A DNA stretch of 64,000 bases. It comes from an uncultured Solirubrobacterales bacterium. GTDB lineage: Bacteria > Actinomycetota > Thermoleophilia > Solirubrobacterales > 70-9. The stretch is taken from assembly GCA_963735235.1 (NCBI GenBank), contig CAVTKD010000003.1:4441-68440 (forward strand), given 5' to 3'. How positions within the stretch are numbered: position 1 is the first letter of the stretch; each line of letters opens with the position of its first letter. The notes under the pieces were generated by a model that did no database searches, was not told where the DNA came from, and saw only the letters and a list, made by a program, of their open reading frames with translations. This document shows positions 57,770 through 61,935 of the stretch, in pieces. The position numbers and the translations under genes are program-made.

Positions 57770-57786
57770 ATGAAGTACATGCCGGA
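57770..57786. repeat. Left copy of a perfect 17-bp direct repeat (attL-like), ATGAAGTACATGCCGGA
   Basis: Identical to 61541-61557. On the minus strand, with its flank, it reads TCC GGC ATG TAC TTC ATC TGA, which is SGMYFI-stop. Confidence 0.95.
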
Positions 57787-57811
57787 TTGGGGAGCACAAT
57801 CTCGCATCGGT

Positions 57812-58123
57812 TCACCTTACTTGTGCGCCACCTGTGCTCATCGCGGCGTACAGGCTTCCCACGGCCGAGTCGATGGTGTCACGCACATGCTGGCGGTTCC
57901 GCTGCTCCCGGTCGTAAGCGAGCTGCGCCTCTTGAAGCTCCAAGTCATAGGCGAGCTGCGCCCCATGAAGCTCCCGGTCATGCGAGAGCTGCTCCTGCTG
58001 CCGGTGGTTGGCCGTACGTGCGGAAATGTATGCCGCGACGATGGCCGTCACGGCGATCAGCGCCGGTCCGATCACCTGGTGCCACCAGGGATCACCGCCG
58101 ACAAGATGCACGTCCACTGCCAT
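57812..58123 (-). CDS. Small single-TM protein with a coiled-coil tail containing 11-aa tandem repeats
   Basis: 103 aa. The TM segment is VIGPALIAVTAIVAAYISA. The repeats are ELHGAQLAYDL / ELQEAQLAYDR (33-nt DNA repeats at 57908-57940 and 57941-57973, 27/33 identical). Third codon positions are GC-rich on this strand but not on the overlapping plus ORF. Confidence 0.5.
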   Translation of the reverse strand: MAVDVHLVGGDPWWHQVIGPALIAVTAIVAAYISARTANHRQQEQLSHDRELHGAQLAYDLELQEAQLAYDREQRNRQHVRDTIDSAVGSLYAAMSTGGAQVR

Positions 58124-58182
58124 CCGATTAATTATCGCTGCGCGGGGCCCAGGGGCTATATTCGTCAGACGTCCTAGGTAGC

Positions 58183-58410
58183 GTGGTAGCCATGCCGGAT
58201 ATGGAACTCACGAAGGAAGTAATTGAAGTATCGACGCGCCTGATCGATGCGAGCCGGGAGGGCGAAATCGAAGGCAAAGATGTTGCAGCCCAGATTGATA
58301 GGCCCGATGTCGACCTTTACTACGCGTTCCAAGAGGCCAAGCGACGAGGCGTGCTGAAGATGTATTTCCCCGGAGGCATGGGACTGCCCTCATTGATTCG
58401 GCGACCCTAG
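58183..58410 (+). CDS. Small hypothetical protein (75 aa)
   Basis: ORF only. It has no recognisable motif, and its start could be the internal MELTKEV. Confidence 0.35.
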   Translation: MVAMPDMELTKEVIEVSTRLIDASREGEIEGKDVAAQIDRPDVDLYYAFQEAKRRGVLKMYFPGGMGLPSLIRRP

Positions 58411-58507
58411 CGAGAGCCCCTGGGACGCCGCCCGTCATTCGTTGTCTGAAACCGGGGCTCTCCCTCCTCCTGAGTCGCGCTTTCGCAGTCGTTTCGTCCA
58501 TGACCTT

Positions 58508-59647
58508 TTAGTTCGGCGAGTCCTCATCGAGCGCATCTGGATTGACCAAGACGACTACCTCCGGGTCAATGCCCTCGGCGCAAAACAGGCGCGGCACTCC
58601 CCCGCCTCCCCCGGCCAGTTCGACTTGGACCTTGGCTTCTCGATAGGCCTCCGCTACCGAACGACCGAAGCCCAGCGAGTTGTAGAACTGCCCCGCGAAG
58701 ACCTTGGCGTCTTCATCGCCAATGGCTGCGTCCATCCCAATAGCCAGATCTACATGCCGAATAGCGACATCAGCCTGAGCAGCCGAATCACAGCTATTGA
58801 ACAGAATGAGTCGCACGCCACCGGCAGCAGCCTCGAGCAGGCGGCCAAGCATCGTGTTATCCAGCGTCCGAGTGGAGCCATTCTCGTCCTCGAAGGCGAG
58901 GCCGCTGTTACTCCCGTGACCGCTGAAATGAAGGACCGTTGGACGAACTTCATTGAGATCATCGAGCAAATCTCGTAGCTGGCGGGCCATGCGGGCGCGG
59001 AAATAGATCGAATCCCGGTAATCAGAAGCTCGGACTCGCTTTTCGATCTCGCGGGTCTCCCTGTCCAATCTAAGAGAGGTCTGGTCCTCTGGACTGGACG
59101 CTAGGAAGAGGACCGCTACCTCCGGAGGGGCTGCTTGCCGACTGGCCTCTTCAAGGCGCCTCTCAAGCTCCGTGATCTTGTGATCCTGCTGGGCCTCTCG
59201 CTGCGCGCGCTCAGCGTCGGCAGCGTGTTGGGAACGTTCCTCGCGCTTACGCCGGTCGGCCTCCGAACGCTCAGCTTGGCGACGTCGTTGATCTTCTTGG
59301 CGTTTTTTCTGTTCCTCGGCGCGACTCGCTTTCTTGCGCTCAGCTTCTTCCTCCGAGCGAAGCTTCTCTTCGGCCTTGCCAACTTTTTCTTTCGCCTTGC
59401 CGGTGTCTCCCAATCGCCTTGAGACATCGGTTCGGGCGCTCGCCAATTGACGTTGCATGGATTCAATTTGGCGGCCATAGCTACGAATCTGAGAATCCGA
59501 GCGAGATTGGGCCGCGCGCCCTTCCAGCTTGGCGATCTCATTTTCGAGATTGGTTTGCTTCTTCGAGGCATCAAAGTGACGCTTGGTCGCGCCATCGAGA
59601 TTCCGTCGATCTTGCTTCAGCGCTTGCTGGGCACTAGAAACAGACAT
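58508..59647 (-). CDS. Coiled-coil protein with a C-terminal CHAT-type (caspase-like) domain
   Basis: Trimmed to MSVSSAQQ (ATG complement 59645-59647). The first ~190 aa form an E/R/K/Q-rich coiled coil. These are followed by VAVLFLASSPEDQTSLRLDRETREI, VLHFSGHGS (His) and LILFNSCDSAAQA (Cys), then LAIGMDAAIGDEDAKVFAGQFY. Confidence 0.7.
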   Translation of the reverse strand: MSVSSAQQALKQDRRNLDGATKRHFDASKKQTNLENEIAKLEGRAAQSRSDSQIRSYGRQIESMQRQLASARTDVSRRLGDTGKAKEKVGKAEEKLRSEEEAERKKASRAEEQKKRQEDQRRRQAERSEADRRKREERSQHAADAERAQREAQQDHKITELERRLEEASRQAAPPEVAVLFLASSPEDQTSLRLDRETREIEKRVRASDYRDSIYFRARMARQLRDLLDDLNEVRPTVLHFSGHGSNSGLAFEDENGSTRTLDNTMLGRLLEAAAGGVRLILFNSCDSAAQADVAIRHVDLAIGMDAAIGDEDAKVFAGQFYNSLGFGRSVAEAYREAKVQVELAGGGGGVPRLFCAEGIDPEVVVLVNPDALDEDSPN

Positions 59648-60465: not shown

Positions 60466-60535
60466 AGGACAACAAAATACGAGCGACCTCGGTCGATCAG
60501 GCCTCAGGCATAGCGATTTGGGAATACTGGATCGG

Positions 60536-61411
60536 ATGACGCTGATCGTCGGGAGGCACAATCTCAATGGCGTGATTCACGTAGTTGGCGACATGCGTCT
60601 GACTGATCCCGCCGAGATCAGGCGTGGCTATCCCTACGCCGTCCTTAAGAACATCATTCTCGGCCCAGACCACCTCGTGGCCTTCGCGGGAAATGCCGAC
60701 CTCGGGATGCACACGATTCGCAGGCTCAAAGATGCTCCCATTGAAGAGCTTGCGGGTGGGCTTTTTGATTCCGCGAAGGAAGCAGGCGGCGGACCCGGCG
60801 GAGTGGATTACCTGCTGGCCCATACTGAGCGCGGTCTGCAACGGGTCACGGCCAGCGGCGTCGAGGGGCCGACCGACGCCGGATGGATCGGTGACCCGGC
60901 CGCCTTTGAGATCTACCAACGTGGGTACCACGCAGCGCCCGTGCCAGAGCCGCTCTGGATCGAGGGCGTAAGCCCGCCCCGCGATCAATTAGGCGACCCC
61001 GCTGCCATGGAGCCATTCATCCGAATGGGCATGGGAACTTTCGCGCTGATGGAGAGCGAAAGCGTTGCCAGCGTTGGCGAGGTCTTTGTCACGGCCAACT
61101 CAAAAAGGGGCTTTCATTACGAGCAGCAAGGGTTCTTCCAAGCCGATCACGAGCAGGAGATCGGATCAGAGTGGACCGATCTCAACTGGGGGACCGCTGC
61201 CCAAGGGGGGTTTGGGTTCAATCTCCTTCCGCCCAAAGAGCACGGGACTGGGGCCATCGGCCTGTATTTCCCACATGGGGGACTTGGGCTTCTCTACCAC
61301 CCACTGGCTTATGGCGATGCGCTCGTCTATCGGCATGTGACTCACGACGAATTCTGCGCAGCGGTTGCTGAGGATCACGAAATTGAGATCGACGGACCCC
61401 GCCTAGCCTGA
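60536..61411 (+). CDS. Hypothetical protein whose N-terminal ~160 aa resemble an HslV/proteasome beta-type Thr1 Ntn-hydrolase, plus an unknown C-terminal domain
   Basis: Trimmed to MTLIVGRHNLNGVIHVVGDMRLTD. By eye it aligns with E. coli HslV [22 protein letters not shown]...KKVRRL...VIAGFAGGTADAFT via MT-IV, NG, GD, LKNIIL and LVAFAGNADLGMHT. The CDS itself is confident. The fold call is tentative. Confidence 0.5.
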   Translation: MTLIVGRHNLNGVIHVVGDMRLTDPAEIRRGYPYAVLKNIILGPDHLVAFAGNADLGMHTIRRLKDAPIEELAGGLFDSAKEAGGGPGGVDYLLAHTERGLQRVTASGVEGPTDAGWIGDPAAFEIYQRGYHAAPVPEPLWIEGVSPPRDQLGDPAAMEPFIRMGMGTFALMESESVASVGEVFVTANSKRGFHYEQQGFFQADHEQEIGSEWTDLNWGTAAQGGFGFNLLPPKEHGTGAIGLYFPHGGLGLLYHPLAYGDALVYRHVTHDEFCAAVAEDHEIEIDGPRLA

Positions 61412-61426
61412 ATCCACGGGCGTTTC

Positions 61427-61459
61427 GTGCGCCACTGGTGCGCCAGTCGTGCGCCAGTA
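61427..61459. repeat. Three tandem 11-bp repeats, GTGCGCCA(C/G)T(G/C/A), at the right edge of the islet
   Basis: GTGCGCCACTG GTGCGCCAGTC GTGCGCCAGTA. They are followed by the tandem aaCCGGACTc agCCGGACTg (61471-61490) and the hairpin CCGCTT-GAAC-AAGCGG (61495-61510). Confidence 0.9.
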
Positions 61460-61536
61460 CGACCGGAAACAACCGGACTCAGCCGGACTGCGCTCCGCTT
61501 GAACAAGCGGAATCCCCAGTGCCCATGCGCCCCGAT

Positions 61537-61935
61537 CTAAATGAAGTACATGCCGGAGCCGGACTCTTCGGCCTCGCGGCGGGCGACTTCGGCGATCGTG
61601 GTCTGGCCGAAGACCTTGCGCAGCGCCGTCACTCCCTCCGACCAGATACCCCCCGCCTCGTCGGCCTCCTGGCCGATCTTGCCGTCCAGCGCCTGCACGA
61701 CCTCCAGCACGGTGATCTCTTCGGCCGGGCGCGAGAGCGTGTAGCCGCCGCGCATGCCGCGATGGCTGGTCAGCAAACCGGCCCGCCGCAGAGTCGAGAA
61801 GAGCTGCTCGAGGAACTGCTCGGGGATCTCGCGGCGCTCGGCCAGCTCCTTGATCGGCACCGGCCGCTCGCCGGAGCGGGCGAGCTCGGCGAGGGCGACG
61901 ACCGCGTAGCGGGACTTGGAGGTGATCGAGATCAC
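61537..61935 (-). CDS. Rrf2-family transcriptional regulator (CymR/IscR-like)
   Basis: 132 aa. Motifs: MISITSKSRYAVVALAELA, PVPIKELAERREIPEQFLEQLFSTLRRAGLL.S.RG..GGY.L. Confidence 0.88.
   Translation of the reverse strand: MISITSKSRYAVVALAELARSGERPVPIKELAERREIPEQFLEQLFSTLRRAGLLTSHRGMRGGYTLSRPAEEITVLEVVQALDGKIGQEADEAGGIWSEGVTALRKVFGQTTIAEVARREAEESGSGMYFI
61541..61557. repeat. Right copy of the perfect 17-bp direct repeat (attR-like), inside the 3' end of the Rrf2 gene
   Basis: ATGAAGTACATGCCGGA. The minus strand reads ...TCC GGC ATG TAC TTC ATT TAG, which is SGMYFI-stop of the intact Rrf2 ORF. Confidence 0.95.

Follow-up and report, generated by a model that had tools for sequence, protein, structure and literature searches.

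An integrase-less islet at the 3' end of an Rrf2 regulator gene in an uncultured Solirubrobacterales bacterium is very probably a derivative of a small tyrosine-integrase element family

Organization of the islet

The window analyzed here comprises 64,000 nt of DNA from an uncultured Solirubrobacterales bacterium, and all positions given without a locus number are window coordinates. It contains an islet of five open reading frames (ORFs), named g1 to g5, which is bounded by two copies of a 17-bp direct repeat and lies at the 3' end of the gene for a CymR-like regulator of the Rrf2 family. The features of the islet and of its target gene are collected in Table 1. For comparison, contigs and genomes from public metagenomes, from Logan and from species-representative genomes were used, which are numbered L001 to L215.

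Table 1. Features of the islet and of the adjoining Rrf2 gene, ordered by position in the window
Feature	Position	Strand	Basis or remark
Distal att site: displaced native Rrf2 3' end, 17-bp core plus ATC-TGA	57766..57786	-	exact repeat; ending TTCATCTGA
Truncated left (P') arm	57787..57830	+	blastn to left arms of L128, L127, L129, L162, L171, L203
g1, 103 aa, transmembrane segment and coiled coil	57812..58123	-	ORF list
g2, about 72-75 aa	58183..58410	+	ORF; called as 72 aa in the islet of Logan ERR12040023
g3, 379 aa, N-terminal coiled coil and CHAT (caspase-like) protease domain	58508..59647	-	PF12770, 1.8e-10
Module junction	59692..59714	.	homology to L214 (g3 module) stops at 59691, homology to L207 (g4-g5-arm) starts at 59715 (blastn)
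g4, 254 aa, Rossmann-like alpha/beta N-domain and C-terminal DUF1889	59701..60465	-	PF08986, 3.6e-8
g5, 291 aa, proteasome / Ntn-hydrolase fold	60536..61411	+	AF2, pLDDT 80.9; Foldseek
Right (P) arm	61412..61540	+	three GTGCGCCA, CCGGA repeats, palindrome CCGCTTGAACAAGCGG
Proximal att site: core 61541-61557 plus element-supplied ATT-TAG now ending Rrf2	61537..61557	-
Rrf2-family regulator (CymR-like), 132 aa, target gene	61537..61935	-	PF02082, 2.6e-29

The repeat, ATGAAGTACATGCCGGA, occurs exactly twice in the 64 kb, at 57770-57786 and at 61541-61557. The pair remains unique even when two mismatches are allowed, and the number of chance matches expected from shuffled sequences is 0. On the minus strand, both copies together with their flanks encode the C-terminus ...SGMYFI. 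The left copy, TCCGGCATGTACTTCATC-TGA, has its stop codon at 57766-57768; the right copy, ...TTCATT-TAG, has its stop codon at 61537-61539, which is the true end of the Rrf2 ORF. The G+C content of the islet interior is 0.597 versus 0.700 elsewhere in the window, and the lowest value of any window of the same size upstream is 0.647. The third-position G+C content (GC3) of the five islet ORFs is 0.61-0.75 versus 0.86-0.97 in the flanking genes. Thus, the perfect repeat, the shared C-terminus with its two different stop codons, and the lower G+C content and deviating codon usage that had been described in a first-pass annotation, made from the letters of the sequence, were all confirmed. An islet with the same five genes, integrated in the same context, occurs in a second sample (Logan ERR12040023, a contig of 3895 bp). 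No tRNA genes were found in the 64-kb window.

Empty and occupied sites at the Rrf2 gene

The exact sequence of the window's Rrf2 protein was found on three further contigs. On the first (L001), cysK-cysE start 17 bp past the Rrf2 stop, and the islet and the hexapeptide acyltransferase gene that lies next to it in the window are both absent. On the second (L002), Rrf2 is followed by a GT2 glycosyltransferase gene, a convergent hexapeptide acyltransferase gene and then cysK-cysE. On the third (L003, 1.3 kb), the sequence past the Rrf2 stop is homologous to the right end of the islet. The first two contigs both read ...TCCGGGATGTACTTCATCTGA and thus have the ATC-TGA ending of the left, distal copy of the window.

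To determine the occupancy of the site more broadly, the Rrf2 protein was scanned against species-representative genomes. Eighty loci were returned, all of them from metagenome-assembled genomes of uncultured Solirubrobacterales or Thermoleophilia, with Rrf2 proteins that are 92-98% identical. About eight of the 80 genomes are truly empty, that is, they have a single core, a CTGA stop and cysK directly after Rrf2 within 3-73 bp (L132, L164, L169, L173, L179, L182, L190, L195). The empty site predicted in the first-pass annotation therefore exists, both in these genomes and in two of the contigs with the identical protein. The empty-site ending in relatives is ...TCCGG(G/C)ATGTACTTCATCTGA; in L001, L002 and the CTGA-type genomes it is ...TTCATCTGA, identical to the distal copy of the window.

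Occupied sites end differently. A TAG-type stop followed by element sequence is present at the right copy of the window (ATT-TAG) and in L003 (ATC-TAG), and the combination of a TAG ending with an adjoining arm is common to L003, L017 and L127-L129 (CTAG) and to L153, L156 and L162 (TTAG). In most of the 80 genomes the ending of Rrf2 is CTAG, and a short scar of the element end, "ctagatcggg", comes next. The arrangement in the window is that predicted for a crossover between attB and attP within the 17-mer, with the native ending at the distal and the element-type ending at the proximal position. Because the distal copy has retained ATC-TGA and the proximal copy carries an element-type TAG ending, these data support the proposal, made from the window alone, that an element integrated site-specifically into the Rrf2 3' end and supplied replacement C-terminal codons and a stop.

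The genes rrf2, cysK and cysE are contiguous in L001 and in about eight genomes, and the islet splits this rrf2-cysK-cysE operon. A coherent cysteine module that includes the acyltransferase was not supported: the gene (57235-57735, plus strand; compare 4658-6118 in L002, where the GT2 gene accompanies it) is variable and is missing from L001 and from the truly empty genomes. Across the 80 genomes the interval between Rrf2 and cysK varies between 3 bp and more than 8 kb and has an assorted content, including GT2 and acyltransferase genes. A GC-rich hairpin next to the left repeat copy (57751-57765) had been interpreted as the terminator of an uninterrupted Rrf2 gene. The palindrome is real, but it has no T tract and was not called in a terminator scan, and in relatives with the same protein the uninterrupted Rrf2 gene has no terminator and is followed either by a gap of 3-18 bp to cysK or by the glycosyltransferase gene.

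Arms shared with a family of integrative elements

Between the stop codon of g5 and the right core, the motif GTGCGCCA occurs at 61427, 61438 and 61449, that is, with a period of 11 bp. After this triplet come three repeats of the CCGGA type (about 61463-61490) and then the palindrome CCGCTTGAACAAGCGG. On the other side of the islet, a single intact GTGCGCCA is located at 57823-57830, 36 bp inside the left core, and is followed by the degenerate GTGCTCAT. Homology of this left arm to those of full elements extends to about 57807-57810; the full-element arms have two to three GTGCGCCA with a spacing of 12 bp (seen in L017, L053, L092, L005, L207 and L214). Their position and conservation suggest that the GTGCGCCA repeats are arm-type sites bound by the integrase of the family described below.

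A search for the arm pattern GTGCGCCANNGGTGCGCCAG in JGI metagenomes yielded at least 120 stretches, and among those listed the whole arm architecture is present in about 45-47 loci. It is also present in 18 of the 80 Solirubrobacterales species genomes. Of the three matches of the arm pattern in IMG/VR viral contigs, none belongs to the family. The arm adjoins different cores, namely the Rrf2 3' end, tRNA-Leu and at least two other sites. Among the matches listed, it is combined with the Rrf2 3'-end core in L011, L017, L019, L049, L068, L075, L080, L085, L102, L103, L109 and L119, and with a tRNA-Leu core in about 20 loci. The last 17-20 bp of the Rrf2 gene are one preferred target of the family, which is widespread in uncultured soil Solirubrobacterales (Thermoleophilia).

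Two variants of the arm repeats were observed, GTTCGCCA in the second of two tandem elements in L103 (4342-4480) and TGTGGCAC in L215 (about 9200-9260). Each of them adjoins a diverged family integrase, which suggests that the arm-site specificity co-varies with the integrase subfamily. On some metagenome contigs, two copies of the arm are only about 750-800 bp apart (L035, 2276-3067; L088, 4941 and 5737), which may reflect either duplications of the arm or tandem units of very small size.

Full and decayed members of the family

The full members at the Rrf2 site have lengths of 7-8.7 kb and encode a tyrosine integrase, an Xis-like helix-turn-helix (HTH) protein and a Replic_Relax protein. The unit in L017 comprises 6851 bp, is flanked by an 18-bp direct repeat and encodes a split integrase (PF00589, 3.6e-13), a Replic_Relax protein (1.3e-21), XRE regulators and an Xis-like ORF with a weak HTH_17 match. 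A full element of 8.55 kb at the same site was found on a 10-kb Logan contig (L207). The order of its features is core, P arm with three TGGCGCAC, homologs of g5 (86%) and g4 (75%), DUF2188, further genes, Replic_Relax, xis, HTH, integrase (407 aa), a 139-aa ORF, DUF4062, P' arm with two sites, and core. At tRNA-Leu, the unit in L092 comprises 8151 bp between copies of a 34-bp repeat, and its tyrosine integrase is intact (PF00589, 4.2e-21, plus SAM-like N-domains).

The five islet ORFs encode none of these functions. Pfam searches with them yielded no integrase, transposase or excisionase, and tblastn searches of all 64 kb with the family integrase, Xis and Replic_Relax proteins gave matches with E > 0.1 only. 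The description of the islet as recombinase-less in the first-pass annotation is therefore correct for this copy, but not for its kind, since full members at the same site carry the tyrosine integrase, the Xis-like HTH protein and Replic_Relax. The implied novelty of a recombinase-less mobile islet does not persist either, because arms and cargo place the islet with L017, L207, L127-L129, L156 and L162.

The site in the 80 species genomes is found in several states. An arm, a full integrase, xis, Replic_Relax and two cores are present in five genomes (L127, L128, L129, L156, L162; 6977-8718 bp). Three genomes have an integrase fragment between two cores (L165, L171, L203; 1.5-2.9 kb), and in one of these, L203, the arm is too diverged to be scored as such. 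Eleven genomes have the arm and one core only and lack the integrase. Apart from the truly empty sites described above, the remaining genomes have other content, many of them with the CTAG stop and the short scar.

Copies without an integrase or with a mere fragment of it are common (L005, L053, L103, L165, L171, L203, L214). C-terminal integrase fragments were found in L005 (8833-9072) and in the 1.9-kb unit of L053. The tandem at the Rrf2 site in L103 consists of an element with an integrase fragment and a next one with a frameshifted integrase and the variant arm. The islet in L214, at the Rrf2 site, has two cores within 5903 bp and no integrase. Taken together, these states show that the Rrf2 site is an integration hotspot in heavy use, at which the series of decay stages is complete.

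A further islet, detected via homologs of g5, is located in a tRNA-Leu(GAG) gene (L005). It comprises 3036 bp with a perfect 20-bp repeat, and the same pairs of arm motifs are present at both ends. Its repeat (7938-8023, 11011-11090) is part of the variable arm of a tRNA that is intact, and a displaced tRNA 3' end is missing at the distal copy; in L055 and L092, by contrast, the repeat has 34 bp and extends to the tRNA 3' end. Further rearrangement seems to have affected the distal junction of the L005 islet. A 1468-bp unit in L006 (9898-11390), bounded by a 25-bp repeat of a tRNA-Pro(GGG) 3' end, was also considered as a member and not accepted. Its single GTGCGCCA could be due to chance, which makes the case suggestive only; the genes of this unit are a g5 homolog (61%) and hicA/hicB-like genes.

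Mosaic composition of the islet

Different parts of the islet have their closest counterparts in different relatives. The region 59715-61626 is 80-82% identical to L207 at the nucleotide level (blastn). In L214 the CHAT gene is 94% identical, and nucleotide identity is 92% over 58468-59691. The boundary between g3 and g4 is thus a module junction, because the homology to L214 ends and that to L207 begins there (Table 1). A g1 homolog (77% aa and 85% nt identity) is carried by the full element in L128, in inverted orientation relative to the window. In L215, a 76% CHAT homolog lies directly downstream of a family integrase and next to the variant arm. In full elements, a block of integrase, regulator, xis and Replic_Relax genes lies between the cargo on the P' side, for example CHAT, and the cargo on the P side. 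Because g5, g4 and the arm are found in L207, g1 in L128, and CHAT after the integrase in L215, the islet is best described as a mosaic that lacks the integrase module.

The g5 gene lies immediately beside the P arm in elements with different cores, as seen in the window (60536-61540), in L005 at tRNA-Leu (10001-11030) and in L207 (85-1103). In L004, a 78% g5 homolog lies inside a large island with no arm nearby.

Genes of the islet

The g1 gene contains three 33-nt tandem units (57904-58002) that are 73-82% identical and encode an 11-residue coiled-coil repeat. The protein has no match in Pfam or PADLOC, and the scans with PHROGs and PADLOC gave two marginal matches (E about 2-4e-3). For g2 there is no match in Pfam, PADLOC or PHROGs.

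The CHAT domain that had been assigned to g3 in the first-pass annotation was recovered with 41.2 bits versus a gathering cutoff of 24, and the translation contains HFSGHG and FNSCDS as candidate His and Cys motifs. Proteins composed of a coiled coil and a CHAT domain are common, with more than 340 homologs. The N-terminus has a weak match to PDC-S66 of PADLOC (3.3e-8, positions 1-139 of 282 of the profile, coiled coil) and another weak match to phrog_15646; g1, g2, g4 and g5 have no match in PADLOC. Public gene callers start the gene at a GTG at 59752, which results in 414 aa and a 52-nt overlap with the end of g4. The 379-aa protein is not on record in an exact look-up because the callers use this upstream GTG and report 414 aa. 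The ATG at 59647 is supported by the length of CHAT homologs, about 375-385 aa. The module junction lies in the same stretch (59647-59752).

The structure of g4 was predicted with a pLDDT of 90.5 (AF2), and the sole significant structural match is that of its C-domain to the uncharacterised 2es9 (E 5e-4). Elsewhere, homologs of g4 are found in mobile or defence-type contexts, together with AbiTii, SduA_C or a serine recombinase.

No Pfam model matches g5. At the level of the fold, the first-pass annotation as proteasome-like was right: Foldseek with the AF2 model retrieved 20S subunits and HslV (E about 1e-6, probability 1.0, TM 0.4-0.7). In the 90% collection this family is represented by 20 members, and in the 50% library by 428 cluster representatives at E <= 1e-3. 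In an alignment, most full-length homologs start with MTL, D19 and R21 are invariant, and K38 is near-invariant. Proteasome beta subunits have the catalytic set Thr1/Asp17/Lys33, to which Thr2, Asp19 and Lys38 of g5 may be comparable.

Elsewhere, the three larger genes, g3, g4 and g5, are found independently of one another, and they give the impression of individual cargo genes rather than of a single system. A CHAT protease and a proteasome-fold protein fit the conflict or defence type that had been suggested for the cargo, and from the genomic context a defence role is plausible. Most likely, the cargo consists of independent conflict or defence genes of the kind that such elements shuttle.

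A second insertion in the window

The window also contains a PcrA/UvrD helicase gene (51427-54786, minus strand) with an in-frame insertion of about 364 aa at about 52861-53951, which starts with ...DQ|CLVEGTS, ends with ...VTHN|S and contains an intein splicing domain (PF14890, 5.8e-12). The insertion is missing from the helicase orthologs in L001 and L002 (755 aa) and is a mobile intein polymorphism.

Discussion

The results described above indicate that the islet is very probably a non-autonomous mosaic derivative, or remnant, of a family of small tyrosine-integrase integrative elements, integrated at the 3' end of the Rrf2 gene. An ancestor with an integrase, or several of them in tandem, would have integrated by crossover within the 17-bp core. 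For the islet, this predicts an attP junction of the form ...CCCCGATCTAA-ATGAAGTACATGCCGGA-TTGGGGAGCACAATC... and a restored attB junction of the form Rrf2...TCCGGCATGTACTTCATCTGACGCCCAAATT.... Recombination or deletion between resident or tandem elements of the family may then have removed the integrase-HTH-xis-Replic_Relax block, which would formerly have been located between g3 and g4, and the same process may have eroded the left arm to a single GTGCGCCA. What is left would be a cargo cassette between att sites, and its renewed movement would require a family integrase acting in trans or joint excision with an element integrated alongside it.

Several points weigh against this history. A single parent with g1-g3, integrase and g4-g5 was not found among the loci compared, so that the history had to be pieced together from three relatives. 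In L128, g1 has the opposite orientation. A simple deletion within an L128-like element at this site, which we considered as the whole story, was therefore rejected; a mosaic origin fits better. The exact state of the window, with arm, two perfect cores and no integrase, was found in none of the 80 species genomes, and L214 is the sole other case seen. The proposed binding of the integrase to GTGCGCCA derives from the position and the conservation of the repeats, the PADLOC match of the cargo is partial and confined to the coiled coil of g3, and an integrase acting in trans can be assessed only within the visible 64 kb of the genome.

The closest alternative is that the islet is not a dead remnant but an actively mobile satellite or hitchhiker, or a functional cis-mobilizable element or mobilizable cassette, that is maintained without an integrase and moved in trans by the integrase of a full element, either resident elsewhere in the genome or newly arriving by transfer. 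In favour of this, the islet has two perfect cores and an intact P arm, an integrase-less islet with two cores recurs in L214, tandem accretion at the Rrf2 site is documented by L103, and the module of g5 and arm is found at two targets, Rrf2 and, in L005, tRNA-Leu. The islet is also present in a second sample; that copy, however, has the same integrated context, and movement cannot be deduced from it. Against this reading, the P' arm has one intact site left, versus two to three in full elements, no circular form or attP junction was observed, the family integrase is absent within the 64 kb, and the further decayed one-core copies in 11 of the 80 genomes suggest that decay is the usual fate. 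We therefore consider current mobility in trans somewhat unlikely, and the reading as a remnant is preferred. A broader version, according to which integrase-less islets with arms are maintained as trans-moved cassettes at Rrf2, tRNA-Leu and other sites, with g5, g4 and CHAT as new anti-phage or anti-element effectors, appears unlikely.

Very improbable is an autonomous islet of which one protein, with g5 as the leading candidate, represents a new type of recombinase. It is true that g5 is the sole gene common to the direct-repeat islets of the window, L005 and L006, all of which lack an intact integrase, and that it ends about 130 bp from the core in the window and in L005. However, the Ntn-hydrolase or proteasome fold with conserved Thr2, Asp19 and Lys38, the C-terminal integrase remnant in L005 and the normal integrase alongside g5 in L207 eliminate this candidate, and in L004 the g5 homolog resides in an island without an adjoining arm. 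The nature of the other proteins, a CHAT protease (g3), a DUF1889 protein (g4) and two small proteins (g1 and g2), also speaks against this reading. That the repeat arose by chance or slippage and that the low-G+C segment is an ancestral variable region exchanged by homologous recombination in the flanks would agree with the highly variable Rrf2-cysK interval, but this can practically be dismissed in view of the zero chance matches expected for the 17-mer, the placement of native and element endings exactly as a crossover of attB and attP predicts, and the existence of integrase-bearing homologs with the conserved arm that are bounded by the same core.

As a derivative of this family, the islet is ordinary in kind, and nothing about it is new in principle. 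Its value is that an orphan islet without a recombinase can be assigned to its parent family from the att arms alone. With GTGCGCCA repeats and, after them, CCGGAYT repeats at about 100 bp from the core, the arm provides a simple DNA signature for a family of small integrative elements, not annotated before, of uncultured soil Solirubrobacterales. The hotspot offers a decay series at one site, from intact elements via frameshifted integrases, integrase fragments and integrase-less copies with two cores to copies with one core only. In addition, the element delivers candidate conflict genes, including a Pfam-less proteasome-fold family with several hundred cluster representatives.

Comparison with known systems

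In bacteriophage lambda-type attP sites, arm-type integrase sites flank the core. The family resembles this arrangement in that GTGCGCCA repeats with a spacing of 11-12 bp lie to the left and right of the core, at distances of about 40-115 bp, and are conserved across elements with differing cores. It differs in that the binding by the integrase N-terminus is predicted here and that a second type of repeat, CCGGAYT, has no assigned partner.

Among the cargo proteins, g5 shares with proteasome beta subunits and HslV the alpha-beta-beta-alpha Ntn fold (Foldseek), a Thr straight after the Met, and Asp19 and Lys38. In contrast to them, it has about 90 additional C-terminal residues and no Pfam match, is known from a predicted fold and stands alone on mobile elements, with no ATPase partner nearby. 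CHAT or caspase-like proteases participate in prokaryotic conflict systems, for example as type III CRISPR-associated CHAT proteases. Like them, g3 contains a CHAT domain in which candidate His and Cys motifs are present, and resides on a mobile element among defence-type cargo; unlike them, it has no sensor or CRISPR partner and a coiled-coil N-terminus, and its PDC-S66 match covers the coiled coil only.

Small integrative elements of actinomycetes, the AICE-like elements (actinomycete integrative and conjugative elements), include pSAM2 and SLP1. Full members of the family are similar to these and to integrative mobilizable elements (IMEs) in having a tyrosine integrase, an Xis-like HTH protein, XRE regulators and a replication or relaxation gene, and in inserting into the 3' ends of tRNA or protein genes with restoration of the end. 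The family differs in using Replic_Relax (PF13814), or TrwC in L215, and an FtsK-like Tra protein was not seen in the members examined. The islet of the window has no integrase, Xis, XRE or replication/relaxation genes. Judged by its gene content, it would not qualify as an autonomous IME or AICE, for which its own integrase and relaxase/replication module are absent; full family members have both.

The closest known counterparts of the islet are the cis-mobilizable elements (CIMEs) of streptococci, att-flanked elements without integration and transfer genes that are derived from IMEs and from integrative and conjugative elements (ICEs) of the ICESt1/ICESt3 type (Guedon et al., 2017; PMC5704250). 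The islet is located in a different phylum, the Actinomycetota (Solirubrobacterales), and its target is a gene for an Rrf2 regulator. Its parents are integrase-xis-Replic_Relax elements of 7-9 kb instead of ICEs, its left arm is partly eroded, and its mobilization in cis, for which the tandem arrangement in L103 provides indirect support, or in trans is hypothetical. The islet matches the published definition of a CIME: it has retained attL and attR, has lost the genes for integration and transfer, and has intact, integrase-bearing relatives that insert at the 3' end of the same target gene and that accrete in tandem there, as in L103.

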